From: an uncultured Chthonomonadaceae bacterium
GTDB lineage: Bacteria > Armatimonadota > Chthonomonadetes > Chthonomonadales > Chthonomonadaceae
Assembly: GCA_963835065.1 (NCBI GenBank)
Contig: CAWIEK010000041.1
Coordinates: 64,001 to 128,000 of the forward strand
Direction of reading: 5' to 3'
Length of the DNA stretch: 64,000 bases
A program made the translations under genes and the position numbers. Numbering within the stretch: the stretch's first letter is position 1; every line of letters begins with the position of its first letter. Shown in pieces: positions 1,224 to 52,692 of this stretch. The notes beneath the pieces are model-generated. The model was not told the origin of the DNA. It ran no database searches and was given only the letters and a program-made list of their open reading frames with translations.

Positions 1224-1344
1224 AGTGGTCAGTGGGCAGTGGTCAGTGAAATGCCATCTGACTGCAAGATAGACTTGTGTGTAAGCGACAGCAAGCAGTG
1301 TCGGCGGTCTTGTCCTAACCACTGACCACTGACCACTGACCACT
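1224..1344. repeat. Inverted heptamer-array hairpin (CAGTGGT)n ... (ACCACTG)n
   Basis: agtggtcagtgggcagtggtcagtg at 1224-1248 and ccactgaccactgaccactgaccact at 1319-1344, two bases from the stop at 1347. Confidence 0.9.
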
Positions 1345-1346
1345 AC

Positions 1347-3075
1347 TCACTGACTCTTGCCTCCCGGCGCAAGCGGGTTCGCGCTGTCGTTGGGCGGCGT
1401 TGGCGTTGGTGTAGTGGTTCCTTTTTCCGGGTCGGGCGTGGGTGTCGGCGTGGGAAGCGGTTCGGGCGGCGGAAGGGGCTTGGGCTGCGGCTCCACCGTG
1501 ATCTGCTTGACAACGGTTTTGCCCAGATTGTCCGCTGCCGTCAGCGTAAACATGGTTCGCTCGTTGAGGGTGACTTCGCGGATGCCGGACGGGTCGCCGT
1601 TCGTGACAATCACGTTGCCCTTGTCGTCTTCGATGTGAACACTGGCCGTCCGCTTGGCGGACCAGCGCAGGCGAACCGGGACGCCGATATACACGGTTTT
1701 GGGCGCGGCGAAATCAGTAATGGCGGCAACCGACGTTTCTCTGGAAACGACGCTGATTTTGACGGTCTTCGTGACGGACTGAACGCGCTTGTCGGCGCTG
1801 ATGGCCCGCAGGAAGTACGTGATGTTGTCGCCGATGCTGTTCATCACGACGGGCGTGGAGCGCTGCAGGCTGCTGAAGGTAGTGCCGCCCGGATCAAGGA
1901 TGTATGAGTCGGCGTTTTTGCCAAGCCAGGAAAATATCACCTGTTCGCCGACATGCACTTTGGCGGTATCGGCGGTGAACGACACGATGGTAGGCGTCGG
2001 GGGCAGGGGCGCGGCCATGACATTGACGGTAACGGACTCCGTCTTCCACTTGCCCTCATTGCCCGGTCCCGTCACGTGCAGCGTGTACGTGGTTTGCGGG
2101 CCGGCTGGGAACAAACTGCTGATTGCCCGAACTCTTGCCCAGTTCGCCGTCCGAGACTTCCGTGCCTTTTTCCCCCGTGCTGTGCGTCAATTTTATCGTG
2201 GGCTTGTCGCCGGATACGTCCCATGTAAGCGTAATAGGCTTATTTTCCTGAACAGCAGTCGGCGTGGCGGCGAAATTGTTCAGTTTCACGGGTATGGGCG
2301 GCTCCGGCTTGAACGCGGCGTATCCCCCCGCGCCCAATCCCGCCAGCAGTAAGAAAAGCCCAACAAACGGCGAAACGAGGGCGCGACGCTCGATTTGTCC
2401 CTGCGTTTTAGCCGACACGTAGCTGTCTTCACTGGAACGCGCCGACACGGTAAAGCTGTACAAGCGCGGGCTGCCGACCCACGCGGACGTTTTGGGGCGC
2501 GCGGCCATCAAAATCGTTTGGGTTTGGCCGGGTTTCAGAACGATGTGATCCACGTCAAACTCATACGCGCAGTCGTCTTCCGGGTCACTGGCGTACAATT
2601 GCAGCACTTCTTCGGCGTTGCCCTCGTTGGCGACGGTCACTTCAAAGTCATTCAATGGCCGGAAAAACGAGGACGTGGCGCGGCGCGGGGCCATTTCCAC
2701 CTGCAGGCTGTCAAAGGATTTCACGATCAGCATAGCCTGCGCAATGCCCACTTCGCCGGTTTCCATCGCCACCACGCGCACCAGAAACGGGTACGAACCC
2801 GCCCGGTTTTCGCTGCTGCGATTCATCTTGAAGTTGATGCGCTCGCTGACCGTCGCTCCGGGCGCGACATTGACGGCGGGAACCGGGATGTTGTACCACT
2901 CGATGTCAATGCCTTCCACTTCCAGAAGGAGGCGGTCGGGCGTCGCCTGATGATTGCTCATCGTGACGACGAGGCGCGTGGCGCTGCCCGGTTCAATCGC
3001 CAAATCCGGCTGATCCAGCGTGACGACGATTTTCTGGACATCCATAAATTGCGTATCCGAAATCGCTGAGGACAT
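1347..3075 (-). CDS. Membrane-anchored protein: N-terminal Ig-like domains, TM helix, Ig/PKD-like repeats, Pro/Thr tail (one frameshift near 2110)
   Basis: ORFs 2056..3141 and 1347..2114 join as QFVP-AGPQTTYTL if one C is removed from a CCC run; ATG at 3075 after AAAGG; TM FVGLFLLLAGLGAGGYAAF. Confidence 0.7.
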
Positions 3076-3345
3076 AAAATAAACCTTTATCGGGAGCGCC
3101 TGAAAAACATCTAATGTGCAGATAAGTGTCATCAGGCGCAATCAAGGCGGGGGTAAAGCGAACTACACTTTTCTATCGCTGCGTCATTATAGTCAACGCT
3201 GCAAAATTTGTCAATCATTTCGCAGTGGCGAGAGTTTTCCGGGGATTTTCAATGCCCCGGAAGCAATTGCATTGGAAGCGCCCTCTGTGCCTGCGTCCGA
3301 AAAGCAAAAGAATTACGATTTGATTCTTGATTCGGTTCCACGCGC

Positions 3346-3374
3346 TTGCTAAATTACATCCGAATCGGTATAAT
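3346..3374 (+). promoter_or_regulatory. Sigma70-type promoter TTGCTA-17-TATAAT
   Basis: TTGCTA 3346-3351, 17-nt spacer, TATAAT 3369-3374, upstream of ATG 3443. Confidence 0.65.
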
Positions 3375-3442
3375 TGACGCAAGGAACACTTCTGCACGAC
3401 CTAATTTCCCTGCCTTGCCCCCACAACACACAGGAAACACTT

Positions 3443-4969: not shown

Positions 4970-7380
4970 CTCCACCTTTCTCCTTAGTTCAATCAAAACA
5001 CTCACGAACCTTCCTGCTTCTGCTCAGTGGCTGCTGCCTGTCCCTGTCGCTTCTAACCTCCCCCGTATCTGCTCAAAACGCGCAGCAGGGAAGTCAGGGA
5101 ACAGGAAACAGGGAACAGGGAACAGTCCAATCCACAATCGAAAATCGAAAATCGAAAATCGAAAATTCCCCAACACCCTCCCAGGAATTGCCCCTCCTCC
5201 TCCTCGTGGTGCAGCGTCCGCAGGGAACGCCCGCTAAAAAAGACGACATGAACACCGCCCTGTCGCTGATGCTGCGGGCGTCCGTGCGCGAGTCGCGCAA
5301 GTACCAGGTGATCTTGTACAGCGCGGAACACCCCAGTATCCGCCGCGTCCTGCTGGAACACGCCATTGCCGCCTCGGAGTTGGCGGAGCCGATTGCGCCC
5401 GAAGCTCTGCAAAAACTGGCGAAGTTGATCGGCGCGCATGACATTTTGATGGTCAGCAGCGCGCTGGAAAAATCCGGTCTGCGTACCGATGTGCGCCTGA
5501 TGACGGACGCGGGCGCGGATACATGGATCACGCCCCTCGCGCAGCCGTTCATCGTGGACGCGCAATTGGGCAAACTGCGCCTGAAAAACGAGCAGATGCT
5601 GGCGCTGACCGTAGACGACATTGACAAGTATCTCGGCGTTCCCTCCCACCTTGCCAGCAACCTGACCAAAACCATCATCATCGGCAAGACAGACCCGAAG
5701 AAGAACAAGAACGCCAAGAACAGCAAGAACGCCAACAATCCGAAAACGAAGAGCGGCGACAACAGCGAAGACGATGCGCGAACTGCCAAAAATGGAAGCG
5801 CTTCCGAGGATGGCGGCGACAGCGCCAACGGCGGGAAGCCCACGGACCCTGCCACCGGCAACACGAACGGCGTGAACGGAACCTCCGGGCGCATAACTCG
5901 CGCGGCGGACAAGACGCAGGCAGCAGAAAAAACGCAGGCGGAAAGAGCGAACGGGAACAGCGCCGGGAACAATTCTGCCGGAAACACCAGCGGAAACAAC
6001 ACCGGCAACGCCCCCGCAAACCGTTCTGCTGACAACAATAATACCGGGAACGACACGAGCGCGGACACGGACGCGCAAACCGCAAAAACATCGGCGACAG
6101 GCAAAAGCACGCCCCGAAAAACCAACAAGCCGTCCGTGAAAATCGCGCGCAACACGCAAAAGTCGCGCGGCAACTCCGACACCACAGCCACTCCGAACAC
6201 GGCGGGCGAGGTCGGCAATGCCGGCGCAGCCAACGGTTCGGGCAATGGCGCGGGTACGCAGGGCGCGGCATCGGAGGCTAACCCGGCGGCTTTGCAGCGC
6301 GTGACCAGCGACAATCTCAAAAACAAGCCGGAAGACCGCAAAAACCAGCCGGCCATTCTGGACACGGACGCGGGCGCAAGCCTGCTTGCCGAGCCGAACA
6401 TCATTCCCCCGGTTCCGCCAACCGACAAAATTGATTACGAGGCGGCGGCGGATCGCTACCGGAAGACGGGCGACCTGTCCAACGCCATCAACTCGCTGCG
6501 GCAGGCCATCAACGAAAACCCCCGCGCCCTGAACCTGCGCAAAAAACTCATTATCGCCTATCAGGATCGGCTGCTGCCCGACCTTGCGGCTTCGGAGATT
6601 GAGCGGGCATTGGTACTGGCTCCGGGCGACGCCGACCTGACCAAGCTGCGTGCCAGTACCCTGTTCGGCAAGGGCGATACCACGAACGCCATTAAAATGC
6701 TGCGCGACGTGGTTGCCGCGCATCCCGGCGACACGTCGGGGCAGGTGGCATTGGGCGACGCGCTGCTGGCCGACGGCCAATTCGCCGACGCCCTGAGCGC
6801 GTTTGAAACGGCGGCGAAAAACGATCCCAAAAGCCCGCTTCCGCACCGCCGATTAGCGCGGGTACTGGCGGCGCGGGCAGGCAGTGACATTACGCAGTAC
6901 GCCGCGTGTCTGGGGCAGATCGAGCAGGCGCGTAAACTGACGCCGACAACCGACACCCAAACCTATCAGGGCGATTACTTTGAATTGATGCTCCTTCTGG
7001 AAACGCGCTTGAAGGACATGCTGGATCAGGTAAATGAAACATCTATGGGCGTGGGCAAACGCGCCAACGCCGACCTGATGCAGCATGCCACCGACCTGAA
7101 AGAGCGCGCCGAAGCCGCGTCTGATTTTCTGGACAAGCTGCCGCCCGCAGCGGGACAGGACGTGACCCATGCCCATTACGGACAGGGCGCGGCCTTATTG
7201 GTGCAGTCCATCGGCTACCTGCGCAAATTCATCCCCTCCAACGAAGCGCAGATCGGCAACTCCCTGCGCGCCACCCGCATTGACGCCCTGACCGAACTGA
7301 CCAACGCCCACGACCGGCTCATCGCCTCCCGCGAAGTGCTGGAAAAAGGCCGCGCCGCAACCGGCGTGTCCGGCAACTGA
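4957..7380 (+). CDS. Exported TPR-repeat protein with long Asn/Gly/Thr-rich linker
   Basis: Signal peptide ending VSA-Q; TPRs (GQVALGDALLADGQFADALSAFETA); overlaps the upstream stop. Confidence 0.8.
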   Translation: MRQLTPPFSLVQSKHSRTFLLLLSGCCLSLSLLTSPVSAQNAQQGSQGTGNREQGTVQSTIENRKSKIENSPTPSQELPLLLLVVQRPQGTPAKKDDMNTALSLMLRASVRESRKYQVILYSAEHPSIRRVLLEHAIAASELAEPIAPEALQKLAKLIGAHDILMVSSALEKSGLRTDVRLMTDAGADTWITPLAQPFIVDAQLGKLRLKNEQMLALTVDDIDKYLGVPSHLASNLTKTIIIGKTDPKKNKNAKNSKNANNPKTKSGDNSEDDARTAKNGSASEDGGDSANGGKPTDPATGNTNGVNGTSGRITRAADKTQAAEKTQAERANGNSAGNNSAGNTSGNNTGNAPANRSADNNNTGNDTSADTDAQTAKTSATGKSTPRKTNKPSVKIARNTQKSRGNSDTTATPNTAGEVGNAGAANGSGNGAGTQGAASEANPAALQRVTSDNLKNKPEDRKNQPAILDTDAGASLLAEPNIIPPVPPTDKIDYEAAADRYRKTGDLSNAINSLRQAINENPRALNLRKKLIIAYQDRLLPDLAASEIERALVLAPGDADLTKLRASTLFGKGDTTNAIKMLRDVVAAHPGDTSGQVALGDALLADGQFADALSAFETAAKNDPKSPLPHRRLARVLAARAGSDITQYAACLGQIEQARKLTPTTDTQTYQGDYFELMLLLETRLKDMLDQVNETSMGVGKRANADLMQHATDLKERAEAASDFLDKLPPAAGQDVTHAHYGQGAALLVQSIGYLRKFIPSNEAQIGNSLRATRIDALTELTNAHDRLIASREVLEKGRAATGVSGN
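5095..5166 (+). repeat. Two heptamer arrays (CAGGGAA)x4 and (AATCGAA)x5 in frame inside the CDS
   Basis: cagggaacaggaaacagggaacagggaacag and aatccacaatcgaaaatcgaaaatcgaaaatcgaaaat, translated QGTGNREQGT / IENRKSKIEN just after the signal peptide. Confidence 0.9.
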
Positions 7381-7382
7381 AC
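7291..7382 (+). repeat. 92-bp direct repeat, copy 1 (3' end of the TPR gene)
   Basis: Matches 8810-8901 with 4 mismatches. Confidence 0.95.
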
Positions 7383-7696
7383 ACAACACGCCCGCGAAGC
7401 CCTATGCCACGTCTTCAGTAGCCGGTTTATCGGCGCGGTCATTTCACGCTTGATCACAAAGGCATTTGCATACTTGACAGCCTGAAAACCTTCCGGGTTG
7501 ACTGAGTGTAGCGGGGAAGCGGCCCGCCGTACCTGCCTGCTTCCCGTCCACAGCGCTACGTTTTAGAAATGAAGGAGGAAAAGACGGCCTGCGCAACGTA
7601 ATAGAGAACAGATATGAACTACAATCTGTTTCAGGAAACTGCCTGAAGGTTATAAACGCAGAACCATTGGAGCAGGCTGTACAAGGAGAAAAGCAG

Positions 7697-8798: not shown

Positions 8799-8809
8799 TC
8801 AAGAAACAC

Positions 8810-11141: not shown

Positions 11142-14123
11142 TCAGCGCCAGTCTCCCATGAGCGTGAAGGGCGCCCAGTAGTAGGGGTGTCCATGCTTTG
11201 TGTCATGGAGCAGGGAAAGTTCCGCTGCGCGCAGGGCGGCGGCTTTGCCCTGCGCAAGGCTGGCGTAGAACGCGCCCATCAGCGTTGCCGTTGATTCGTC
11301 ATCTACCGACCACTGGCTGAGAACCTGTGTCGGCGCTCCGGCCACAAACAGCGCCCATGTCAGCCCGATAATGCCCTCCCCGCTCCGCTTATCGCCCCGC
11401 GCCGTATTGCAGGCCGACAACACCACCATGTCCGCTTGCAGGTTCATGTCGAACAACTCGCGCGCCGTCAAATAGCCGTCTTCTTTGCTGTCGGGCGCGG
11501 GCTTGGCAAGCACCACGCTCGACAGCAGGGGCGAAGCGTCGTTGAAAAACGCATGGGAAGCGAGATGCAGGTAGCGATACTGTCCCGCTTTCTGCTTAAC
11601 AATGGATTCCTGCGCGTCCGCGCCCGTGTAAATCGCCGCGTCCGGTATCTCTTTGCGCAGCATATCCATTTCGCGCTGCGTTCCCGGCAGGGTTGTGATA
11701 TGCCCGCCGCGTGGCAGCAGCAGGACGCGCGAGGGGGCATCAAGCGGGCGTGAAGGCGCATCCAATGGCCGCGAGGGCGCGTCAAGAGGACGAGTAGGCT
11801 CTTTGACAGGACGCGAGGGCGCATCTAAGGGACGCTGGCCGGGGATGTCCTTGTTGTCGCCGAACCGCTCCGCGCCGCCGAAATCGGGATTTCCCAATGC
11901 CAGCAGCGTGTTGGGCGCTTTCCTGCCCTGCCGATCCTGAAGCGCGGCCTGTACGCCCGTCGCGCTGTAGGCGTAAGCGATTTCATACCGTTCCAGCAGG
12001 AATTGCTTGCCGTCGTGCAGGGCGGCAAAGGGCAGGCTCCACAACGGTCCGTCCGGGCAGACGACCAGACGCTTGATGCCCCCTAGCGCGGGCGCGGCGG
12101 GGCGCAGCAGCAGGTCATAAAGTTTTTGCGCGTTCCCCTGATACGCTTTGCGCGGGTCGGCGCATAAATCGCGGAACGCTTCCACCTGCGCAGACAACGC
12201 GGCGCGGGTCACATCAACCGGGAAAACGCTCAGTTTGGCCGCGCCATTTTGCTTTGTCACCACGAACAGCAGCGTGTGGTCGGCCCCGCTCATGTCGGGG
12301 TACTCTTTGGCGTACAGGGTGGCGAACTCCAGCAGAGCCGTATCGTCAGGAAGAAAGCGCGCGACCTCCTGCAGCGTCACGGTCGTTGCGGCGCGTTTGG
12401 CGGCAAGTTCGGGGTGCTGCGCGTACAGGCTGTCCTCGTAGGCTTGCAGATCGTGTTCCGTTCGCGTGAGTTGCTCCTTCAGCGCGGCGAACCGCTTTTT
12501 CGCCCCGACCTCGTTGTTGACGCCTTCGCGCACCATGTCCGCGTTCAGCTTGTCCGCCGATTGGCGCAGTTCCTGTTCGCGTTGCGCCTGCTCTGCCGTC
12601 AGGCTCTGGCGGATGTCAACTTTGCCCCCGGCCATCAAGTCCAATAGCGCCCGCGCCTTGATTTTCTGCACTGTATCAAACGCCTGCTCCGGCTGCTTCG
12701 ACTTTATCAGCAGCGCGATGCTGCGATGCAGGCCATACAAAATCCGTTCGACAAAACTGACCTTCAAATCGCTGAAACCGCCCACGGACGCGCGTACCCG
12801 GTCGGCTTTCAGCACGGCCTGATCCAGATGGGTTCGCGCCTGCGCCAGTTGGCCGTTTTCTTCTTCGGCAACCGCGATATTATACAGCGTGCCCGCTTCT
12901 TCAAGGGCGTTGCCGGCAACGCCGGGGCTTGTCAGGGCGCGATTCAAAACCGTCAGCGCCTGCTGAAAGTATTGCCGGGCGCGGGTTTTTTGCCCGAGCG
13001 CCAGATACACTTCCGCCTGATAATTCAGGGTGGCTCCTTCCCATTCCCAATTGTCAAGCGAATGATACAGGCGCGCGGCCTCCTCATAGCGCGGCAGGGA
13101 TTTGGCCGGCTGATTCAGCGAGCGATACGCGCCACCAATGGTTACGAGGCAGGCAGCCAATCCGCTGGTGTTGGCGCTTTGGCGCAGGAGCGGCAGCGCC
13201 TGGTTAAGGTATGTCAGGGCTGTCTGCGACTGCCCCTGTTCCTGGTAGATCACTCCCAGCACCATCTGCATGGTGAGCATGAGGTCGCGGCGCCCCAACG
13301 CGCGCCACACGTCTGTGGCTTGTTTGGCAAAATCACGGCTTTGCGCGTATTGGCCCATGTTCGCGTACACGCAAGTGAGCGCCGTGAGCGCCAGGCCTTC
13401 CCCATTGCGGTCTGTCACGCCAGCGCGCGCCTGCAAGGTCCTCTGGCTGTACTGCATGGACTTCAAGTAATCGCCTGCTTCCAGGCAGGCGTACGCAAGC
13501 GTTCCCACCATAAGGGAGCGTTGATCTTTGCTGCCGCCCTGCTCCATATAGGGTAAGGCAAGTTCAAAAGATTCTACAGCCTTCGCCCATTGTTCGCGCC
13601 CCATGTAGATACCGCCTGCCATAAACAGCGCTTCCATCTTGAGCGTGGCGAAGGCAGGATCGTCACCCACCGCAACGGCCTGCTGCACATAATTCAGCGC
13701 TTTATCCTGCTGGTTCAATGCCTTGCAGTCTTCCGCCAAAATCGTCAGTATGGCGACCTGCATTTTTGTGATATGGCGCTGCTGGAAAAACGGCAAAGCT
13801 CTTTGCAGTTGACGTATGCCGGTGTCAAATTGAAGCCCTGCAGAATTTTGTACTCCCAGATATAAAAGCGCGTAAGCGGTTCCGGCGGTATCGTTTTGCG
13901 CCTGCGCTTTTTGCAGCGCGGATTCCAAAAGCCGAAGTTTCTCGACGAAATTATTTGCCTTGCCCGCCTGCTGCGCTTTGGTAATCAGGGTGGCGACTTC
14001 CGCCGTCGGCTCCGACGAGTCCGTTTGCGCGCGAACTCTGCCCGGAACAAGGCTGACCATCAACAGCAGAAGCAACAGCAAAGCCATCAGGCGGCGGGAA
14101 CAGCAAATTAGCGAACGGAACAT
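11142..14123 (-). CDS. Exported TPR + CHAT (caspase-like) protease
   Basis: Signal peptide, about 9 TPRs, CHAT motifs PDGPLWSLPFAAL, HLASHA (His), VLSACNT (Cys), HPYYWAPF. Confidence 0.92.
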   Translation of the reverse strand: MFRSLICCSRRLMALLLLLLLMVSLVPGRVRAQTDSSEPTAEVATLITKAQQAGKANNFVEKLRLLESALQKAQAQNDTAGTAYALLYLGVQNSAGLQFDTGIRQLQRALPFFQQRHITKMQVAILTILAEDCKALNQQDKALNYVQQAVAVGDDPAFATLKMEALFMAGGIYMGREQWAKAVESFELALPYMEQGGSKDQRSLMVGTLAYACLEAGDYLKSMQYSQRTLQARAGVTDRNGEGLALTALTCVYANMGQYAQSRDFAKQATDVWRALGRRDLMLTMQMVLGVIYQEQGQSQTALTYLNQALPLLRQSANTSGLAACLVTIGGAYRSLNQPAKSLPRYEEAARLYHSLDNWEWEGATLNYQAEVYLALGQKTRARQYFQQALTVLNRALTSPGVAGNALEEAGTLYNIAVAEEENGQLAQARTHLDQAVLKADRVRASVGGFSDLKVSFVERILYGLHRSIALLIKSKQPEQAFDTVQKIKARALLDLMAGGKVDIRQSLTAEQAQREQELRQSADKLNADMVREGVNNEVGAKKRFAALKEQLTRTEHDLQAYEDSLYAQHPELAAKRAATTVTLQEVARFLPDDTALLEFATLYAKEYPDMSGADHTLLFVVTKQNGAAKLSVFPVDVTRAALSAQVEAFRDLCADPRKAYQGNAQKLYDLLLRPAAPALGGIKRLVVCPDGPLWSLPFAALHDGKQFLLERYEIAYAYSATGVQAALQDRQGRKAPNTLLALGNPDFGGAERFGDNKDIPGQRPLDAPSRPVKEPTRPLDAPSRPLDAPSRPLDAPSRVLLLPRGGHITTLPGTQREMDMLRKEIPDAAIYTGADAQESIVKQKAGQYRYLHLASHAFFNDASPLLSSVVLAKPAPDSKEDGYLTARELFDMNLQADMVVLSACNTARGDKRSGEGIIGLTWALFVAGAPTQVLSQWSVDDESTATLMGAFYASLAQGKAAALRAAELSLLHDTKHGHPYYWAPFTLMGDWR
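11727..11834 (-). repeat. Peptide heptad repeat RPLDAPS x4 + RPVKEPT inside the CHAT domain
   Basis: Identical peptide units encoded by different synonymous codons. Confidence 0.9.
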
Positions 14124-20644: not shown

Positions 20645-20787
20645 GTAACTCTTCACCACCAAGGCGCAAAGAACACCAAGAAGAGCAAGAAGAAATTGCA
20701 GGAGAGATCGAGACTGACTTCGACTGTATGCCTTTTAATTGCCTGTTTTATCTTGGTGTTCTTAGTGTCTTGGTGGTGAAGAGTTAC
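20645..20787. repeat. Inverted-repeat hairpin element with arms of about 37 bp (9-mer-like units)
   Basis: gtaactcttcaccaccaaggcgcaaagaacaccaaga ... tcttggtgttcttagtgtcttggtggtgaagagttac. Confidence 0.9.
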
Positions 20788-22512: not shown

Positions 22513-22514
22513 CG

Positions 22515-22599: not shown

Positions 22600-22673
<74 letters not shown>

Positions 22674-22686: not shown

Positions 22687-23958
22687 ATGGCGAATGAACG
22701 CGCGGACGGCGTGACCGCTTTACAGCGGGGCGACCTTCCGACCGCCGCCATTTTGCTGGAACAGGTGGTTCGGCAAAACAAGGAAGATTTCGAGGCGCAT
22801 TTGTATCTGGGCGGCGTGTACCACCAGATGAAGCGGCACGGCGACGCGGCGCGCGTCCTGACTCGCGCCGTAGAAATACAGCCGGGCAGCGCGCAGGCGC
22901 GGTTCAACCTGGGCGTGGCGCAGGAGCAGGGCGGCGATTTGGAAGGGGCGCAAGCCTCGTTCGAGCGCGCTATTGTGCTGCAAGCCGAGTATCCGGCAGC
23001 GCATGAGGGACTGGAACGGGTTCAGGCGCGCTTGAACGGGCTGACGGCAATGGCTGCGCGCGAAACCGCCGCCTCCGAACCGCAAGTCCCGCCCACCGCA
23101 GACAGGCCCGCGTTTGCCAGACCGGTCAATTCTTCCTTCGGCAACGCTTCGCCTGCGTTCGCGCCATCCGATTCCGCGCCGTCCGAGTTGCCTGCATCGC
23201 CTGCGTCATCCACGCCATCTTCTTCCGCGCCGCCTGCCGGTTATATGCCCGCGTCTTCGGCAACCCCTTTCTCTCCACCCGGCTATGGCGCTCAGGACGC
23301 CAATATCCCGCCGCCTGCCCCCGGCTATGGCGCGTCTGAATATGGCGGGGTGAACTACAATACGCCGTCCGTTCCGTCTGCGCCCGGCTATTCCGCCGCG
23401 CCTGCGCCTGGTCTCCCTCCCGTTCCGCCGCAAGCCGCCAACCCTTACGCGCCGGGTTATGGTTCCAATCCTTATGCTCCGCCGCCTCCCGGTTACGCGC
23501 CGCCCTATCCGCAGTCGCCGGGATATGGACAAGCGCCGGTTCCGGGACAGCCTGCGCCTTACGCGCAGCCGCCTGGCTATAATCCGCCCCCGCCGTATGC
23601 GCCCCCCGCTCCGTATGGTCAGCCACCGTATGGGGCGGGGTATGCGCCGCCGGGGGGATACGGCTACGGGGGCGCGCAGCAGTATGTTGTGGCGCAGCAG
23701 CCGGTTCCGCAGGAAGCGACCATAGCCCTGATCTTAGGCATTATCGGCCTGCCTCTCGCTTTCACCGGCCTGGGGATTGTGTTTTCTCCGATTTCGCTGT
23801 ATCTTGCCCTGAAAGCGCGGCGCATGATGCAGGCCAACCCCGGCCTGGGCGGGCAGGGAACCGTGACCGCCGCTCTGTGGCTGTCCAGTATCGGCCTGAT
23901 TTTGAGCCTGTTTTTCTGCCTTATAATCCTGATTGCCATATTTGCCGGCGTTAGTTAA
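22687..23958 (+). CDS. TPR + Pro-rich linker + DUF4190-like 2-TM protein
   Basis: N-terminus paralogous to 20837 (MANER...AHLYLGGVYHQMKR); ATIALILGII...GGQGTVTAALWLSSIG. Confidence 0.8.
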   Translation: MANERADGVTALQRGDLPTAAILLEQVVRQNKEDFEAHLYLGGVYHQMKRHGDAARVLTRAVEIQPGSAQARFNLGVAQEQGGDLEGAQASFERAIVLQAEYPAAHEGLERVQARLNGLTAMAARETAASEPQVPPTADRPAFARPVNSSFGNASPAFAPSDSAPSELPASPASSTPSSSAPPAGYMPASSATPFSPPGYGAQDANIPPPAPGYGASEYGGVNYNTPSVPSAPGYSAAPAPGLPPVPPQAANPYAPGYGSNPYAPPPPGYAPPYPQSPGYGQAPVPGQPAPYAQPPGYNPPPPYAPPAPYGQPPYGAGYAPPGGYGYGGAQQYVVAQQPVPQEATIALILGIIGLPLAFTGLGIVFSPISLYLALKARRMMQANPGLGGQGTVTAALWLSSIGLILSLFFCLIILIAIFAGVS

Positions 23959-24063
23959 GGCATCAGGCATATAGGCATTAGATATTAGGCAATAGGCATT
24001 AGGAGTACAGCGAGGACCAAAGCAGGTATGAACCTGATGCCTGATGCCTGATGCCTAATGCCT
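23958..24063. repeat. Inverted heptamer-array hairpin (AGGCATT)n ... (AATGCCT/GATGCCT)n
   Basis: Begins within the TAA stop; right arm cctgatgcctgatgcctgatgcctaatgcct. Confidence 0.92.
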
Positions 24064-26020: not shown

Positions 26021-26100
26021 GTAGGGGTTCTGCTTGCTGAACCCTGCACAAACGCAAACGCAGGCGCAGCAAACGCGGGCGCAGCAAGCAGCGCCCCTAC
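26021..26100. repeat. Inverted GTAG-type REP doublet (REPIN-like)
   Basis: gtaggggttctgcttgctgaaccc ... gggcgcagcaagcagcgcccctac; the recJ TAG lies in the terminal GTAG. Confidence 0.85.
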
Positions 26101-35890: not shown

Positions 35891-36075
35891 GGGGAGAATA
35901 TAGAAACCGCGAAACACACGAACTAAACGAAAAAAGACAAAAGAACAGAGAGAAGCATCGAAAGAACCTTATGGATGGGCTTCTTAGCTTTGCCTCCTTT
36001 TGCCTCTTTGCGGTTCTTTTCGCCTTTCCTGTTTTCGTCTTGGTTCGTGTGTTTCGCGGTTTCTATATTCTCCCC
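35891..36075. repeat. Hairpin element with perfect 33-bp inverted arms
   Basis: ggggagaatatagaaaccgcgaaacacacgaac / gttcgtgtgtttcgcggtttctatattctcccc; right arm overlaps the stop of 36063..36281. Confidence 0.92.
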
Positions 36076-41658: not shown

Positions 41659-42744
41659 ATGAAACTGTTCGGAATCTCGCTGGGCAAGGAAAAAGCGGTT
41701 ACATTCAACGAGTTTCGGGATATGGTGCGCCTGGCTGTGCGGCGAACGCATCCCGGCGCGCGAATCGAAGCACGCGACGACGGTTTTATCCTCTACCGCG
41801 AGGGTGAAGCGCCAGTTGTCGGCAACATCAAGCAGCTGTACCACAATTACTATAAAAATCCCGGAGACAAGGACGCGCTTATCGGGGCGTGGATCGGTTC
41901 GCTGACGTTCGAGACGCCGCAGCATACCTGGATGGAAGCCGCCAACACGCTGCGCCCGACCCTGAAAAACACGTCTTTTGTGGAAGCCGCCAACAAATCC
42001 CTGGGCAAGCAGGAGGACTCGCTGCCCTCGCAGCCGTTTTTGGGCGATCTGCATGTGATCGTGATGCGCGACTTGCCCGGCACAGCGGTTGCCGTGACGC
42101 AGAAGATGATGGATGATTGGGGCGTCACGCTTCAGCAGTGCGTCACGGAAGCGATGGGCAATCTGGGCATTCAGAGCTTCCCCGACGTATCCAATGCCAT
42201 GACAACGGGCGGCGGCAAAAAGGGCATAATGGGCGAGGAAGTGGGCCTGGATTTCAAGGGCGACCATCTCACGGCGACGTGGCTGATTTCGGAGCGGTTT
42301 CGGGATTTTGTCGGACAGCGCTTGCAGGGAGATTATATCGTATCGGTTCCCAATCGGGGCCGATTGACCGCCGTGCGCGCCGATGAGCCGGGGTTGATCG
42401 CGTCCGTGCAGCAGACCGCCCGCAACTATGGCAACCAGCCCTATCCACTTACGGGCATGCTGTTTCATGTCAGCGCGGCCACGACGGGCGGGCAAGTGAC
42501 CGTGTTTCAGCCCGGCGCGGCGGGTGCGCCGACAACCCTGGACGCGAACAGCCAATTTGCCGCCAGCAGGCAGCCTGCCGCGCCGCCAAGCGTGGGCAAC
42601 ATGGCGTCGGGACTGGCTCCCCTGCCCACGCCCGCGCAGCCCAAAGGTCTCAACGAGTGGTACGGCCTGAGCGAGTCCACCTCGGACGAGCCGGAACCGC
42701 CCCCCAACGCGCCGCCGACGGTGAAGACGGCGAGGAAGAAATAA
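41659..42744 (+). CDS. DUF1444/YtpQ-like protein with Pro-rich tail
   Basis: LRPTLK...DL.V....D.P...WGVT....A..NL...VSVPNR pattern; GGAGG RBS. Confidence 0.6.
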   Translation: MKLFGISLGKEKAVTFNEFRDMVRLAVRRTHPGARIEARDDGFILYREGEAPVVGNIKQLYHNYYKNPGDKDALIGAWIGSLTFETPQHTWMEAANTLRPTLKNTSFVEAANKSLGKQEDSLPSQPFLGDLHVIVMRDLPGTAVAVTQKMMDDWGVTLQQCVTEAMGNLGIQSFPDVSNAMTTGGGKKGIMGEEVGLDFKGDHLTATWLISERFRDFVGQRLQGDYIVSVPNRGRLTAVRADEPGLIASVQQTARNYGNQPYPLTGMLFHVSAATTGGQVTVFQPGAAGAPTTLDANSQFAASRQPAAPPSVGNMASGLAPLPTPAQPKGLNEWYGLSESTSDEPEPPPNAPPTVKTARKK

Positions 42745-42846
42745 GGCATTAGGCATTAGGCATTAGAAGAACTCTTACAACGCCTTATTGGACACAAACT
42801 TTGTAGTTATCTCTTCTGATGCCTAATGCCTAATGCCTAATGCCTA
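42744..42846. repeat. Inverted heptamer-array hairpin (AGGCATT)n ... (AATGCCT)n
   Basis: Starts in the TAA stop and ends 3 nt before the trpD ATG. Confidence 0.92.
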
Positions 42847-45682: not shown

Positions 45683-45698
45683 ATAATGCCATTGTTTC

Positions 45699-45779: not shown

Positions 45780-45790
45780 GGATGCTCCTT

Positions 45791-45878
45791 TAGTTGATAT
45801 TTGATAGTTGATAGTTGATAGGCAGACTCGCGCATGTGGAGCAGCCTATAGTACAGGAACTATCAACTATCAACTATC
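45791..45878. repeat. Inverted heptamer-array hairpin (TAGTTGA)n ... (TCAACTA)n
   Basis: Right arm supplies the last codons GAT AGT TGA of 45870..46616. Confidence 0.9.
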
Positions 45879-46616
45879 TGCGTCCAACTCTACCATATTA
45901 AACAAGCGGTAAGCGTTGTCGTACAGGATGCGGCGGCGTTCGGCTTCGCTGGCAGTTCCGTCCTTGATCATGCCGATGGCGGCGGCGGGGTCGAGGTGGG
46001 GCAGGCGGCTGCCGAACAGCAGGCGGTGCGCGCCCACGTCCCGGATGGCGGCGGGGATTTTGGCGCGGTCTAACGCGCCGGACGTTTCGAGGAAAATGTT
46101 GGCGGAAGCATGCGCGGCGGCAATGGCTGTGCGCCAGTCGGCTCCGCCCATGCCCAAAAATATGAATTTGTGCATGTTGTACGTTTTGGCGACGTGCAGG
46201 GCGACTTCCACGCAGGCCGCATTGGGCGTGTGCAGGAAAATGGGCTTGTGGTAGCGGCGGCACACGTTGAGCAGTTCCTCGGCCAGAATGGGATGCAGCG
46301 GCTCGTCAGGGTCGGAACCAATCAGCAGCACGCCCAAAAAGCGCCGGTTGCCCAACAGATCGCGCACGATCTGAATACTGGCGTCCACGCGATTCAGGTG
46401 CGCGATCAGGCAGCCGAACAAATTTTCGCTTTGATCCAGCGTGGCTTTCAGGATGCGGTTGCCGGTCACGGGGTCCACCTGCGCGGCCCGCGACGAGAAC
46501 AGCACGGCGCGGTCAATGCCCCGGCTTTGCAGCAGGGGAGTCAACTGCCCGGCGTCTTGATTGATGCCCGGCAGCACGTTGCCTTCCAGATATACTTGAC
46601 AGTCTATGATGGGCAT
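45870..46616 (-). CDS. Amidohydrolase-fold protein B (metal ligands degenerate), intact copy
   Basis: IIDCQVY, GIDRAVL, NIFLETSG, RLLFGSRLP, RILYDNA.RLF. Confidence 0.8.
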   Translation of the reverse strand: MPIIDCQVYLEGNVLPGINQDAGQLTPLLQSRGIDRAVLFSSRAAQVDPVTGNRILKATLDQSENLFGCLIAHLNRVDASIQIVRDLLGNRRFLGVLLIGSDPDEPLHPILAEELLNVCRRYHKPIFLHTPNAACVEVALHVAKTYNMHKFIFLGMGGADWRTAIAAAHASANIFLETSGALDRAKIPAAIRDVGAHRLLFGSRLPHLDPAAAIGMIKDGTASEAERRRILYDNAYRLFNMVELDADS

Positions 46617-46626
46617 GGAACGCTCC

Positions 46627-46732
46627 AGGCATCAGGCATTAGGCATTAGGCATTAGGAGACACTCTCTAAATGAGCATAATCTGCCGCATAGAAGCATCT
46701 TCCTAATGCCTAATGCCTAATGCCTGATGCCT
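46627..46732. repeat. Inverted heptamer-array hairpin (AGGCATT)n ... (AATGCCT)n (second copy 50062-50167)
   Basis: Four units per arm; overlaps the TAG stop of 46731..47453. Confidence 0.92.
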
Positions 46733-47453
46733 ACATGCTAAGGATGCGACGCGCATTGCCGGACAGCACTTGCTGTTTGTCGGCGTCGGACAGGCCGGCG
46801 AATTGCAGCGTGTCCAGAGCGGAAATGATGGGATGCGAGGGCGCGTTGGAGCCGAACAGCAAGCGCGTTGGGCCAACCGCGTCCACGACGGCTTTGAGAC
46901 AGCCCGGCGCAAGCAGGTTCGACAGTTCCAGATGCCAGTTGTCGTGTTCGCGCAGTCCGAGCAAGCTCTCGGCCAGCAGGGCGGGCGGCACATCCGCGAG
47001 AATCACAGGTGGCGCGTACTCGTTCAGAACGCGCGCCAGTTGGGTGATGTCGCCGGGTTTGGACACGCCGACAACGATGGGCAGCCCGGTTTTGCGCAAG
47101 TCTTCCAGCAGGCAGCCGAAGGGAGAGAAATCTATCGGCCAATTCTGCGCGGCGGGGAAAAAGCGGACCATGCGAAAACCATCGGCTTTGGCCTGCATCA
47201 AGGGTGCAGGGTCGCTGTAGTACATCGTCGGGTTGAACGTTGCGACGGGCAGCAGGGAGGGGTTCTGCGCGCAGATGTTTTTCGTCACCGCGTTGCCGAC
47301 TGCGGGGTCGAGCAGCCAGCCCAGCGTAGACAGCGCGCAGGCTGTGCCGACTCCGTTCTGCTGCATCAATTCCAGCAGCGAGTCCACCGTCAGGTCGGTA
47401 CTGGCAAGCGGCAGCGGCCCAAACAGCGTATTCACGTCCACAATTTCATCCAT
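46731..47453 (-). CDS. Amidohydrolase-fold protein A, copy 1
   Basis: IVDVNTLFG, LLPVATFNP, RLLFGSNAP, VLSGNARRIL. Confidence 0.8.
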   Translation of the reverse strand: MDEIVDVNTLFGPLPLASTDLTVDSLLELMQQNGVGTACALSTLGWLLDPAVGNAVTKNICAQNPSLLPVATFNPTMYYSDPAPLMQAKADGFRMVRFFPAAQNWPIDFSPFGCLLEDLRKTGLPIVVGVSKPGDITQLARVLNEYAPPVILADVPPALLAESLLGLREHDNWHLELSNLLAPGCLKAVVDAVGPTRLLFGSNAPSHPIISALDTLQFAGLSDADKQQVLSGNARRILSM

Positions 47454-47472
47454 ACGACACTCCGAAAACAAA

Positions 47473-47715
47473 TTTGAACCACAGAGACACAGAGACACAG
47501 AGGGTTCACAGAGAAAGCCACGAGAGGGTTAAGAGAAGTTTACACATTTCACAGGGAAATACCTGCCTGAGACAGCGCAACGCGCAAATATCTTTCAAAT
47601 TTTTCTATCTTCGTCAGTTTCGCATATTTCGCGGTTCCCATCTCCTTTTCTTCTCTTCTTCTTTTCTTCTTTTCTTCCCCTCTGTGACCCCTCTGTGTCT
47701 CTGTGTCTCTGTGGT

Positions 47716-47720
<5 letters not shown>
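47473..47720. repeat. Hairpin element with 41-bp inverted arms of (ACAGAGAC)n octamers (second copy 50908-51155)
   Basis: tttgaaccacagagacacagagacacagaggg[t/g]tcacagag on both strands, one mismatch; arm contains the gltX TGA. Confidence 0.95.
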
Positions 47721-49289
<1,569 letters not shown>

Positions 49290-49315
49290 CTATTATGGCA
49301 TAGACAGCGCGGAAG

Positions 49316-50051
49316 GTCCAACTCTACCATATTAAACAAGCGGTAGGCGTTATCGTACAGGATGCGGCGGCGTTCGGCTTCGCTGGCTCGTTCCGTCCTT
49401 GATCATGCCGATGGCGGCGGCGGGGTCAAATGGGGCAGGCGGCTGCCGAACAGCAGGCGGTGCGCGCCCTACGTCCCGGATGGCGGCGGGGATTTTGGCG
49501 CGGTCTAGCGCGCCGGACGTTTCGAGGAAAATGTTGGCGGAACATGCGCGGCGGCAATGGCCGTGCGCCAGTCGGCTCCGCCCATGCCTAAAAATATGAA
49601 TTTGTGCATGTTGTACGTTTTGGCGACGTGCAGGGCCACTTCCACGCAGGCCGCATTAGGCGTGTGCAGGAAAATGGGCTTGTGGTAGCGGCGGCACACA
49701 TTGAGCAGTTCCTCGGCCAAAATGGGATGCAGCGGCTCGTCAGGGATCGGAACCAATCAGCAGCACACCCAAAAAGCGCCGGTTGCCCAACAAATCGCGC
49801 ACGATCTGAATACTGGCGTCCACGCGATTCAGGTGCGCGATCAGGCAGCCGAACAAATTCTCGCTTTGATCCAGCGTGGCTTTCAGGATGCGGTTGCCGG
49901 TCACGGGGTCCACCTGCGCGGCCCGCGACGAGAACAGCACGGCGCGGTCAATGCCCCGGCTTTGCAGCAGGGGAGTCAACTGCCCGGCGTCTTGATTGAT
50001 TCCCGGCAGCACGTTGCCTTCGAGATATACTTGACAGTCTATGATGGGCAT
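49316..50051 (-). pseudogene. Amidohydrolase-fold protein B, copy 2 (several indels, native stop lost at the junction)
   Basis: Indels near 49388, 49428, 49470, 49543 and 49746 relative to copy 1. Confidence 0.8.
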
Positions 50052-50165
50052 GGAACGCTCCAGGCATCAGGCATTAGGCATTAGGCATTAGGAGACACTC
50101 TCTAAATGAGCATAATCTGCCGCATAGAAGCATCTTCCTAATGCCTAATGCCTGATGCCTGATGC

Positions 50166-50888
50166 TTACATGCTAAGGATGCGACGCGCATTGCCGGACA
50201 GCACTTGCTGTTTGTCGGCGTCGGACAGGCCGGCGAATTGCAGCGTGTCCAGAGCGGAAATGATGGGATGCGAGGGCGCGTTGGAGCCGAACAGCAAGCG
50301 CGTTGGGCCAACCGCGTCCACGACGGCTTTGAGACAGCCCGGCGCAAGCAGGTTCGACAGTTCCAGATGCCAGTTGTCGTGTTCGCGCAGTCCGAGCAAG
50401 CTCTCGGCCAGCAGGGCGGGCGGCACATCCGCGAGAATCACAGGTGGCGCGTACTCGTTCAGAACGCGCGCCAGTTGGGTGATGTCGCCGGGTTTGGACA
50501 CGCCGACAACGATGGGCAGCCCGGTTTTGCGCAAGTCTTCCAGCAGGCAGCCGAAGGGAGAGAAATCTATCGGCCAATTCTGCGCGGCGGGGAAAAAGCG
50601 GACCATGCGAAAACCATCGGCTTTGGCCTGCATCAAGGGTGCAGGGTCGCTGTAGTACATCGTCGGGTTGAACGTTGCGACGGGCAGCAGGGAGGGGTTC
50701 TGCGCGCAGATGTTTTTCGTCACCGCGTTGCCGACTGCGGGGTCGAGCAGCCAGCCCAGCGTAGACAGCGCGCAGGCTGTGCCGACTCCGTTCTGCTGCA
50801 TCAATTCCAGCAGCGAGTCCACCGTCAGGTCGGTACTGGCAAGCGGCAGCGGCCCAAACAGCGTATTCACGTCCACAATTTCATCCAT
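50166..50888 (-). CDS. Amidohydrolase-fold protein A, copy 2
   Basis: Translation identical to 46731..47453. Confidence 0.8.
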   Translation of the reverse strand: MDEIVDVNTLFGPLPLASTDLTVDSLLELMQQNGVGTACALSTLGWLLDPAVGNAVTKNICAQNPSLLPVATFNPTMYYSDPAPLMQAKADGFRMVRFFPAAQNWPIDFSPFGCLLEDLRKTGLPIVVGVSKPGDITQLARVLNEYAPPVILADVPPALLAESLLGLREHDNWHLELSNLLAPGCLKAVVDAVGPTRLLFGSNAPSHPIISALDTLQFAGLSDADKQQVLSGNARRILSM

Positions 50889-51150
50889 ACGACACTCCGA
50901 AAACAAATTTGAACCACAGAGACACAGAGACACAGAGGGTTCACAGAGAAAGCCACGAGAGGGTTAAGAGAAGTTTACACATTTCACAGGGAAATACCTG
51001 CCTGAGACAGCGCAACGCGCAAATATCTTTCAAATTTTTCTATCTTCGTCAGTTTCGCATATTTCGCGGTTCCCATCTCCTTTTCTTCTCTTCTTCTTTT
51101 CTTCTTTTCTTCCCCTCTGTGACCCCTCTGTGTCTCTGTGTCTCTGTGGT

Positions 51151-52692
51151 TCAAACTTTTTCATAAACGGCGCGGAGGCGTTGCAGTACCCGGTCCCGGC
51201 CCATCGCTTCCAGAGTTTCGTACAGTCCCGGCCCACTGGTGCGGCCTGTTGTCGCTACCCGCGTGGGATGAACAACGTCGGCGTGTTTCAAGCCCAATGC
51301 TTCCACGATTTGATGCGTGGCGCTTGAAAGGTTTTCGGTTGTCCATTCGGGCAGCGCCTCGAACGCGCTTATTTCCTGTTCCAGCATGGATTTCAGGTAG
51401 GGAACGCCAAACCATTTGGCCGTCGCTTTCGGATCGTAGCCAGTCGGATAATCCAACTCCTCAAAAAAGAAGCCGACCAGATCAACCACTTCCGACAGCA
51501 TCTTCATGCGCTCCAGTTCGAGGGGAATCACCCGGCGCACATAATCCAGCACTTCGATGCGGTATTTTTCCTTACGCGCTTCCCACTGCTTGTCGGTTTC
51601 CAGTTCCTCCTGGCGCGGTTCGGGCGGGACAAGGCCGGCCTGGCGCAGATACGGCAGGCACAGGCCGATGATGCGCCCCGGTTCCGACTGCCGAATATAA
51701 TGCCCGTTCATCCACCTCAGTTTCTCGTAATCGAACACGGCGGGGCTGTCCGCAATGCCGGACAGGGAAAACCTCTCGATGAGTTCCGGGATGGAAAACA
51801 GTTCACGGTTTTCGTCGCCCGCCGACCAGCCGAGCAGGACGATAAAGTTAATCAGCGCTTCCGGCAGATAACCGGCTTCCATGAACGCCTTTACCTGCGT
51901 GGAGCCGTGCCGCTTGGCGAGTTTCTTTTTGTCTGTGCCGACAATCACGGGCAGGTGCGCAAACTTGGGCTTGTCCCACCCGAACACTTCGTACAGGTAC
52001 AGCATTTTGGGCGCTGAAGGCAGCCACTCCTCGCCGCGCAGGATGTGGGTGATACGCATCAAATGATCGTCAACCGTGCAGGCTAGAAAGTACGTGGGAA
52101 AGCCGTCGGATTTGAGCAGAACCTGATCGTCCTGCAATTTGTACTCAAAATGGATTTCGCCGCGTATTTCGTCATGCAGAAGGCAGATTCCGTCAAGCGG
52201 CATGGCAAGGCGCACCACGCTGGACGGTTCCGCGCCTTCCTTTTCCAATCGTTCCAGGCGCATGCGCTCACGGGCTTCCGCATTGCGGCAATGGCGGTCA
52301 TAGCCCGTCGGCAGGTTACGCGCCTGCTGTTGGGTTCGCAGCAAGTCCAGGCGCTCTTTGGTGCAGTAGCAGCGGTACGCATGGCCCTCGGCAATCAGTT
52401 TTTCGGCATGTTCCAGATAGATAGGAAGGCGCTGCGACTGCACATACGGCCCCGACGCGCCGCCGATAAACCAGCCTTCATCCGGCATGGTTCCCGCGTA
52501 ATGAAAACTCTCTTCCAACTCATACGCGCTTTCCGGCACATAGCGGCCCGGCGTCCGGTCGGTATCTTCCAGGCGCACCAAGAACTGGCCGCCTTCCCGC
52601 CGCGCCAGCAGCCAGTTATAAACCGCCGTGCGCAGCCCGCCAACGTGCGGCGAACCGGTCGGCGACGGCGCATAACGAACACGAACAGGCAT
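51151..52692 (-). CDS. gltX: Glutamate-tRNA ligase, intact copy
   Basis: [13 protein letters not shown] (HIGH), RLEDTD, YRCYC, RGEEW, KKLAKR (KMSKS-like). Confidence 0.96.
   Translation of the reverse strand: MPVRVRYAPSPTGSPHVGGLRTAVYNWLLARREGGQFLVRLEDTDRTPGRYVPESAYELEESFHYAGTMPDEGWFIGGASGPYVQSQRLPIYLEHAEKLIAEGHAYRCYCTKERLDLLRTQQQARNLPTGYDRHCRNAEARERMRLERLEKEGAEPSSVVRLAMPLDGICLLHDEIRGEIHFEYKLQDDQVLLKSDGFPTYFLACTVDDHLMRITHILRGEEWLPSAPKMLYLYEVFGWDKPKFAHLPVIVGTDKKKLAKRHGSTQVKAFMEAGYLPEALINFIVLLGWSAGDENRELFSIPELIERFSLSGIADSPAVFDYEKLRWMNGHYIRQSEPGRIIGLCLPYLRQAGLVPPEPRQEELETDKQWEARKEKYRIEVLDYVRRVIPLELERMKMLSEVVDLVGFFFEELDYPTGYDPKATAKWFGVPYLKSMLEQEISAFEALPEWTTENLSSATHQIVEALGLKHADVVHPTRVATTGRTSGPGLYETLEAMGRDRVLQRLRAVYEKV

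Follow-up and report, generated by a model that had tools for sequence, protein, structure and literature searches.

This locus raises the question of what a set of inverted-array hairpins is, and how they came to lie where genes end. The window, meaning the whole stretch of 64,000 nucleotides that was analysed, contains all nine of the hairpins described in an earlier sequence-only reading, and their predicted RNA folding energies run from -33 to -106 kcal/mol. Two more hairpins are part of a segmental duplication (offset 3435 nt, 1159 identical nt) and are not independent. No strand is assigned to any of them.

1224..1344, no strand: hairpin of the CAGTGGT heptamer, arms 1224-1248 and 1320-1344, 71-nt spacer
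20645..20787, no strand: hairpin with imperfect 9-mer arms of 37 nt, 92% complementary
22600..22673, no strand: AATGATG hairpin with a loop of 8-12 nt
23958..24063, no strand: heptamer hairpin overlapping the TAA of gene 22687-23958
35891..36075, no strand: composite hairpin, outer arms of 36 nt, 97% complementary
42744..42846, no strand: heptamer hairpin overlapping the TAA of gene 41659-42744
45791..45878, no strand: TAGTTGA hairpin that overlaps the stop of the 45870-46616 gene on the minus strand
46627..46732, no strand: heptamer hairpin whose 32-nt arms match perfectly; it overlaps the stop of the 46731-47453 gene on the minus strand
47473..47720, no strand: composite hairpin of the ACAGAGAC octamer, overlapping the stop of a minus-strand glutamyl-tRNA-synthetase-like gene
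50061..50165, no strand: copy of the 46627 hairpin in the segmental duplication, with which it shares spacer and flanks
50908..51155, no strand: copy of the 47473 hairpin in the segmental duplication

Most of the nine have the clean 7-9-nt tandem arms that had been described, but those at 20645 and 35891 have imperfect 9-mer-like arrays. Overlap with a stop codon had been claimed at six loci. It is found at five (23958, 42744, 45791, 46627 and 47473) and is possible at 1224, where the array continues to 1354 and crosses the stop codon of a candidate ORF on the minus strand (1347-2114, not called by the codon-model gene caller). At 35891 it is unsupported, because the TAG there terminates no ORF of at least 90 aa. 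The 20645 hairpin begins 18 nt past the stop of an Hsp70-like gene, the 22600 hairpin lies 87 nt past one stop and 13 nt ahead of the next start, and the 42744 hairpin stops 3 nt short of the start of a trpD-like gene, a gap into which a ribosome-binding site (RBS) cannot fit. The genes flanking the 45791 hairpin are convergent, not co-directional. Genes were called with a codon model built for this analysis, in which small genes and start positions are uncertain; Rfam gave 0 matches within the window, and a tRNA search found none.

Genome-wide, the hairpin architecture is far above chance, with 589 inverted pairs of like arrays at most 300 nt apart and only 31 direct pairs. The genome (G000) holds at least 568 hairpins, 539 of the 568 intergenic, and its commonest units, counted in pairs, are AGGCATT (88), AGTTGAT (42), AGGTTTC (34) and AATGATG (31). 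The enrichment at stop codons that had been proposed is strong: 411 of 568 hairpins lie at a stop against 38 expected from random non-coding placement, a null whose maximum over 300 draws was 59. Under a stricter null that protects the RBS, roomy junctions keep an excess of stop-adjacent hairpins (25/39 and 39/76, with 11 and 6 expected), while tight junctions show none (155/176 vs 168). The distance distribution peaks sharply at the stop, with 52 of 111 hairpins within -9..+5. Hairpins are biased toward strongly expressed genes with ribosomal-protein-like codon use (14/59/74/132/173 by codon-bias quintile). Stop codons are not the sole target, as 24 hairpins lie in frame inside genes (LeuRS, MetRS and others). 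These in-frame copies account for unusual repeated peptides seen in annotated proteins. At 25 of 192 tight junctions the next start lies within 7 nt of the arm. A Shine-Dalgarno sequence looped across the stem was considered for these junctions and is unsupported, since the site precedes the left arm in 10/25 of them and in 60/167 of the rest.

The spacers had been called unique, and this was mistaken: homology joins spacers of one unit family and also those of different unit families, and the spacers fall into diverged sequence families. Copying between sites is seen in 49 of 323 spacers, each with a close match elsewhere between unrelated flanks; for 10 the match lies within 10 kb, where 0.19 would be expected. 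Rare unit variants are mirrored in both arms (18/78 vs 0.8). Very recent copies are scarce (one pair at 0.96 similarity with unrelated flanks). Sibling copies flank one gene on both sides and occur in either orientation, and spacer orientation relative to transcription is random (26:31). Mixed-arm hybrids are common and ordered, with 132 mixed pairs running left-type then right-type and 3 the opposite way. When outer and inner arm sets of nested elements were compared for which is younger, the count was 17 vs 11 clusters. The idea that the AGTAGTC spacer is an internal-deletion remnant of a four-helix cassette was rejected, as no likeness between the two was found by eye.

Among relatives, orthologous sites are both empty and filled, as the mobile reading had predicted. 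Of 138 junctions compared, 7 are filled in G000 and short in the relative G002, and 2 are the reverse; the 23958 hairpin is absent at the orthologous junction of G002. In 15 of 29 genomes the LeuRS loop has 15 aa; in 4 it holds an in-frame hairpin of 36-39 aa. In 13 of 20 relatives with the same ribosomal-protein operons none of the junctions is filled, and a Nostoc plasmid operon has two 3-nt junctions, each empty or cassette-filled. No target-site duplication was seen by eye in the empty/filled pairs, which come from genomes about 81% protein-identical with diverged junctions. G000 and G002 share 28 filled junctions where 10.6 would be expected; 26 of the 28 carry different units, and the spacers of 13 orthologous pairs are slightly more alike (-4.1 vs -8.1). 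This shared occupancy is also compatible with inheritance plus change in place.

Copies that contain an ORF do exist beside the non-autonomous ones. All genes of the four-helix-bundle family (PF05635, 3/3) and of the GxxExxY family (PF13366, 3/3) in G000 lie between inverted arms; the three PF05635/TIGR02436 genes score above cut-off, and none is inside the window. Relatives of cassette genes in several phyla are armed at 52/77, 22/29 (a set that includes the query's own locus) and 19/29 loci, against 0/142 and 0/32 controls, and 37 of 44 cassettes lie downstream of a sense stop. All ten Nostocales plasmid loci examined carry heptamer arrays next to the four-helix gene, on one flank or both. 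The arm unit follows the protein: in one protein clade that spans phyla, AGnAGTY is the unit in 36 of 56 arms, against 0 of 34 in the other clades. It also follows the genome, since 4 of 5 units tested, each taken from beside the four-helix gene of some genome, are abundant in hardly any other genome; the exception, AAGGATG, flanks a gene in G039 yet is commoner in G000 and G002. The element therefore cannot be defined by shape alone, as had been suggested, because the spacers form families and the arm unit tracks clade and genome. Three window hairpins resemble GxxExxY cassettes: the right arm at 20645 is similar by eye to the right arm of the cassette on contig C19, the inner array at 35891 is similar by eye to the arms of the cassette on contig C3, and the 47473 hairpin shares one repeat unit, ACAGAGAC, with the left arm of the C19 cassette. 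For the commonest units of G000, including those of all six window heptamer loci, no gene-bearing partner was found in this 92% complete genome. A nucleotidyltransferase-like gene within 10-mer arms was considered as a third cargo family and rejected, being armed at 1 of 18 loci and at 0 of 17 in relatives; judged from these loci it is a captured passenger or a chance enclosure. Because such an unrelated gene is enclosed, enclosure by arms is by itself no proof of partnership.

The closest solved structure to the four-helix protein is 2GSC, with five chains (E 9e-19). The GxxExxY protein matches PF13366 above cut-off, and its predicted model (pLDDT 93.6) has invariant residues E46, D76, E86 and K88 in an E...D...ExK pattern. 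Its best structural matches are PD-(D/E)XK nucleases (Z 7.2, rmsd 3.3, 96 aligned), with the Cas4-family structure 4ic1 at the top at a middling Z of 7.2. Foldseek gave no match at E <= 0.001, and a single-sequence fold prediction was too low in confidence to use (pLDDT 36.5). From fold and residues, GxxExxY is a predicted PD-(D/E)XK nuclease.

Altogether this suggests that the hairpins are probably gene-less copies of a selfish cassette which carries a four-helix-bundle (PF05635/TIGR02436) or GxxExxY gene. The earlier proposal of non-autonomous copies of a mobile unit is thus borne out by the ORF-bearing forms, the stop enrichment and the empty and filled sites, and loses its definition by structure only. 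The gene-less hairpins and both kinds of cassette likely form one selfish family. The cassette protein would recognise the unit of its own arms, with some 4-5 heptamers in each arm, perhaps by means of the five-subunit ring known for the PF05635 family. It would promote the copying of any sequence that lies between such arms; the copy would be inserted, in either orientation, where strongly transcribed genes end, and often at a gene end close by. A hairpin already in place may itself be a preferred landing site, which would account for the turnover at junctions and for nested or mixed-arm hybrids, and slippage and fold-back copying would keep the arms matched. In the 8-10-mer class the cutting would fall to GxxExxY; no catalytic site is known in the four-helix protein, which would depend on a host enzyme. 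The host may tolerate the insert because the long stem would fold it out of the mRNA and let transcription continue, and RNase III could cut the stem, as in 23S intervening sequences.

The best-surviving alternative, which we consider unlikely, is that the host makes these structures: slippage or fold-back would form them in place, gene conversion would spread them, they would be retained for mRNA protection or translation coupling, and the proteins would be repeat-binding regulators or passengers. It would account for the shared junction occupancy, for the mirrored unit variants, for starts crowded against arms and for the bias toward strongly expressed genes, and a translational-regulator role is proposed for the Beggiatoaceae heptamers (PMC4679880). 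The link between gene and hairpin is also weak, as four-helix gene presence showed no relation to filled ribosomal-protein junctions among 20 relatives (3/6 vs 4/14). Host manufacture does not sit well with the copies that lie in frame within LeuRS, MetRS and other genes, the random spacer orientation, the relatives that keep the same operons with all junctions empty, the gain and loss of entire gene-bearing cassettes, or a unit that follows a protein clade across phyla.

Spread through RNA seems improbable; here a stem cut from mRNA would be turned back into DNA by a reverse transcriptase of the host, for which the Avd-like four-helix ring would serve as adaptor. This route would account for insertion where translated genes end and for hops within an operon, and is consistent with the sharp stop peak and with siblings on both sides of one gene. 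The four-helix proteins weakly resemble Avd, by model NF033474 (E 6e-8; 32.9 and 30 bits against a cut-off of 80) and by PF22296. G000 has two reverse transcriptase genes, on contigs other than those of its three four-helix genes. But random spacer orientation, with siblings both ways round, and the position of cassettes among ordinary genes speak against it, and the GxxExxY class is left unexplained.

That the hairpins are REPINs moved by the genome's own RAYT (Y1 HUH) transposases is very improbable. The layout of inverted doublets, extragenic and in high copy, with a nearly fixed spacer (65 of 70 AGTAGTC spacers measure 50-59 nt) is REPIN-like, and the genome has four PF01797 matches; their genes are flanked by other repeats and not by these arms, which rules out RAYT as the partner, and the arms are non-palindromic tandem arrays in place of GTAG/CGTC-tagged palindromic units. 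Plain slippage-derived bidirectional terminators are hardly credible, because although stems are strong (median -61 kcal/mol) and 77 of 568 hairpins lie between convergent genes, a U-rich tail follows the stem in only 20 of 430, 10 of 16 internal junctions of the spc/alpha ribosomal-protein cluster are filled, and the in-frame copies lie within genes.

Returning to the selfish cassette, a broader reading is possible and tentative: a class of mobile elements without a classical transposase, in which ring-forming four-helix proteins and, in parallel, GxxExxY nucleases read their own repeats, left and right arms would be interchangeable modules, and insertion would fall at translated gene ends and older hairpins. 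Such a class would be the source of heptamer repeats (STRR, Xanthomonas and Beggiatoaceae sharing one origin), of those 23S intervening sequences that carry an ORF, and of many peptides inserted in frame into housekeeping enzymes. The cassette reading links the origins of the repeats and of these rRNA inserts with the roles of the S23p/four-helix-bundle and GxxExxY proteins, and if true gives two large protein families and heptamer repeats a testable common cause. For each protein a substrate (the unit of its arms) and a target (the junction behind a stop) are now predicted, which opens binding, cutting and mobility to direct assay. Should targeting prove active, a protein with about 120 residues that delivers cargo behind stops with operons intact would be a new insertion tool.

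No description of such a system was found in the open-access literature searched. Rickettsia palindromic elements and bacterial MITEs are palindromic inserts that land in frame in conserved proteins. The hairpins share with MITEs the terminal inverted repeats, the absence of an ORF and the high copy number, and differ in having no single conserved element; a screen for enclosing stems, which covered 5363 genes of 150-1300 nt, revealed no cognate IS transposase, and none with the same ends was seen among the long-pair matches listed. REPINs, too, are doublets in inverted orientation, and their spacers are about as long as those here. As with the cassettes, REP/REPIN-RAYT systems and TIRtrons have a gene bordered by repeats, and the repeats exist in many gene-less copies as well, intragenic ones included (PMC3733652). 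The partner here differs in not being an HUH tyrosine transposase, and mixed-arm hybrids occur here.

Cyanobacterial STRR are heptamer arrays of classic units in Nostocales. In the accessible parts of the published accounts, Xanthomonas GGGAATC and Nostoc heptamer arrays lie between co-directional genes, with 70-75 inverted pairs in Xanthomonas (PMC4692102), Beggiatoaceae have TAACTGA repeats (PMC4679880), and on the sense strand the purine-rich form is found close to the stop (PMC4692102, PMC4679880). Those parts treat one unit at a time and name no gene-bearing form or partner protein, and the accessible text of PMC4679880 has no mention of 'four helix', 'S23' or 'intervening'. PF05635 is homologous to the DGR accessory protein Avd (PMC10053308) and shares its four-helix-bundle fold; the proteins here differ in scoring far below the Avd cut-off and in being flanked by arms and ordinary genes. 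The 23S intervening sequence of Coxiella burnetii (PMC4990558) also has a PF05635 (S23p) ORF within terminal inverted repeats, with a 28-bp stem cut by RNase III and tandem heptamers just upstream of the gene. The elements here differ in lying at mRNA junctions and inside genes, with protein-coding flanks instead of a 23S rRNA gene, in hundreds of gene-less copies, in their many units and in a second cargo family, GxxExxY. The cassette family is most likely akin to the 23S rRNA intervening sequences and would act like REPIN-RAYT.

The repeat arrays form a genome-wide family. The Chthonomonadaceae genome that contains the window (G000; 8.0 Mb, 71 contigs, 92% complete) carries 3210 tandem arrays of period 6-10, with period 7 predominating. 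Array pairs at most 300 nt apart are inverted in 589 cases and direct in 31, with a distance peak at 50-80 nt, and merging them gives 568 elements, each an array, a spacer and the inverted array. This is an undercount, because the strict rule misses four of the nine hairpins described in a sequence-only reading of the window; a tolerant count gives 853 out of 1963 array clusters. Purines dominate the 5' arm in 91% of elements, and heptamer arms hold two full copies in 88 cases, three in 263, four in 514, five in 45 and six in 4.

All nine hairpins were found in the window as described, with the array architecture present at each and imperfect arms in two. The same reading placed six arms over stop codons: five overlaps agree with gene calls and one is possible, and the hairpin at 35891 ends no ORF of at least 90 aa. 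The copies near 50-51 kb are part of a segmental duplication. No Rfam match and no tRNA was found in the window. Other repeats in the window are:

46566-49400 / 50001-52800: the segmental duplication (offset 3435, 1159 nt identical), a true duplication or an assembly artefact, carrying two glutamyl-tRNA-synthetase-like ORFs of 475 and 540 aa
55289-55447: long inverted repeat (59-nt arms, 86%) with no tandem units, between convergent genes; a separate repeat family, partly similar to flanks at G000:C53:165048
26021-26100: inverted pair at 26021, GTAG-tagged and REP-like
11726-12090: array of 21-nt period with inverted ends
5095-5166: tandem heptamer arrays of two units (CAGGGAA, AATCGAA) with no matching partner, likely a mixed-arm hybrid

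Positions relative to genes were counted on calls from our own codon model. The 568 elements lie in 430 co-directional, 77 convergent and 32 divergent settings, with 24 intragenic and the last 5 at the edge of a contig. For comparison, neighbouring gene pairs in G000 as a whole divide 4193/775/774 among the first three settings. An element starts within -25 to +12 of a stop codon in 411 of 568 cases, vs 38 expected from random non-coding placement. At tight junctions, stop adjacency is not above a null that protects the RBS (155/176 vs 168; 14/30 vs 16); at roomy junctions it is 25/39 vs 11 and 39/76 vs 6, and elements peak sharply at the stop (52/111). Filled junctions number 14, 59, 74, 132 and 173 by rising quintile of ribosomal-protein-like codon bias (about 1158 genes each, the lowest possibly including false gene calls). 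Ordinary terminators were rejected as an explanation, since only 20 of 430 elements carry a U-rich tail and 10 of 16 junctions in the spc/alpha cluster are filled.

The 24 intragenic elements are in-frame, including those in LeuRS and MetRS. Across 29 genomes, the LeuRS loop is 15 aa long in 15 and carries a hairpin insert of 36-39 aa in 4, with three different units among those four. Three paralogous proteins (G000:C2:19551, C53:285971 and C22:98013) each have a different hairpin in frame at roughly equivalent positions. Genome-wide, some 411 further typed arrays lie within called ORFs, of which many could be either in-frame insertions or the product of false gene calls.

Long inverted pairs also surround four-helix-bundle (PF05635) and GxxExxY (PF13366) genes. 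In G000, all three PF05635 and all three PF13366 genes lie between arms, one with paired ends but mixed arrays. PF05635 is also present in Bacteroides thetaiotaomicron. Among relatives of the C8 protein, a four-helix protein of G000, 52 of 77 loci carry long stems on their flanks (2 of 79 at contig ends left out; control 0/142), in Acidobacteriota, Bacteroidota, Ignavibacteria, Planctomycetota, Verrucomicrobiota and Armatimonadota. Such stems occur at 22 of 29 loci for relatives of the C33 protein, also four-helix, and at 19 of 29 for GxxExxY relatives, some near-duplicates (control 0/32). Cassettes stand behind a sense stop in 37 of 44 cases. Among the 10 plasmid matches examined out of 39, one Nostoc operon has two 3-nt junctions that are bare in one record and cassette-filled in another. 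A four-helix cassette at AP025023.1:8404-9545 (L241) is opposed to its neighbours' direction, so both orientations occur. Near the four-helix cassette of genome G005, TGAGGAC arrays stand in series at about 41 nt spacing (L253, G005:C1:940773-941170). By eye, window loci 20645, 35891 and 47473 have arrays in common with GxxExxY cassettes; for the six heptamer window loci no gene-bearing partner was found in G000. At G000:C49:487331-487735, a small gene that we take to be DUF559-like is enclosed by long inverted repeats specific to it, which makes a gene-and-repeat system distinct from the cassettes.

The unit AGnAGTY is present in 36 of 56 arms in the C8 clade vs 0 of 34 in others. Five units, each flanking a four-helix gene in one genome, were counted over six genomes. 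AGTAGTC occurs 144 times in its carrier and 0-4 times in others; GGTAGATG 25 and 0-2, with an uninformative reversed-pattern control; AGAAAAC 205 and 0; TGAGGAC 9 and 0. AAGGATG occurs 21 times in its carrier, yet 116 and 206 times in two non-carriers. The arm unit follows the protein, which suggests but does not prove that the protein recognises the unit, because the kin are non-independent and arms travel with the gene.

Spacers record copying between sites. Those of the AGTAGTC family are homologous to one another (+4.8 vs -9.2 shuffled), and several heptamer families share spacer homology across families, more weakly than within AGTAGTC. A close partner at unrelated flanks was found for 49 of 323 spacers; 10 such partners are within 10 kb, vs 0.19 expected, and they often flank opposite sides of one gene, in either orientation. 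Orientation relative to transcription is 26:31. Rare unit variants are mirrored across both arms in 18 of 78 cases, vs 0.8 expected. Neighbouring arrays of different families are ordered left-then-right in 132 cases, left-left in 54, right-right in 56 and right-then-left in 3. Arms act as modules of fixed polarity, and this order indicates that a new element comes to sit inside an older one or to recombine with it, instead of lying next to it; either layer of a nest may be the younger.

Junctions also turn over between relatives. Ribosomal-protein junctions filled in G000 are empty or hold other units in 20 relatives, 13 of which have none filled. In the part of the related genome G002 that was compared (about 0.82 of 7.5 Mb), 28 of 138 orthologous junctions are filled in both genomes (10.6 expected), 7 only in G000 with a short G002 junction, and 2 in the opposite case. 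Of the 28, 26 hold different units at nearly equal offsets from the stop, and across 13 pairs orthologous spacers resemble each other only a little more than unrelated spacers do. This shared occupancy means that hairpins changing in place at inherited junctions would also fit. At rplF-rplR (L037-L056), a small conserved hairpin motif, possibly a regulatory RNA, lies directly upstream of rplR in most relatives; it is retained beside the element in G000 and missing in G002.

The reading we favor, with some reserve, is a selfish cassette family. The cassette protein would recognise its own arm unit and promote copying, as DNA, to the ends of genes and into hairpins already there; the arms would stay matched through slippage and fold-back copying, and in the mRNA the stem would loop the insert out. 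Targeting as an active process, binding, cutting and RNA processing are each proposals. The GxxExxY model is confident and predicts a PD-(D/E)XK fold, with middling structural matches. The structure closest to the four-helix protein, which is weakly similar to Avd, is 2GSC, with five chains; we infer that five subunits may correspond to the 4-5 repeats per arm. Counting against the cassette reading, no partner gene was found in G000 for its commonest units, and arms can surround an unrelated gene. At G000:C70:4941-5528 (L309), 10-mer arms behind a stop codon enclose a nucleotidyltransferase-like gene, possibly cargo capture because its relatives have no arms. Among relatives, whether a genome has a four-helix gene is no guide to its junctions being filled (3/6 vs 4/14).

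Searches of open-access main texts found no paper that connects such repeats to four-helix or GxxExxY proteins. Earlier reports describe inverted heptamer pairs near stop codons in Xanthomonas (PMC4692102), Beggiatoaceae heptamer arrays that lack an obvious mechanism (PMC4679880), and a Coxiella 23S rRNA intervening sequence (IVS) that is cut by RNase III and shares the build of the gene-bearing cassettes (PMC4990558). REP-RAYT and TIRtrons (PMC3733652) serve as a working analogy for hairpins plus cassettes. RAYT was rejected as the partner of these arms, since RAYT genes in G000 have other flanks. The element works like REPIN-RAYT and is built like an IVS, and by feature tests it belongs to neither; to these systems G000 adds scale, numbers for the bias toward stop codons and for the expression bias, exchange of units at junctions that stay put, arms of mixed type, short-range hops, and copies in frame within genes.
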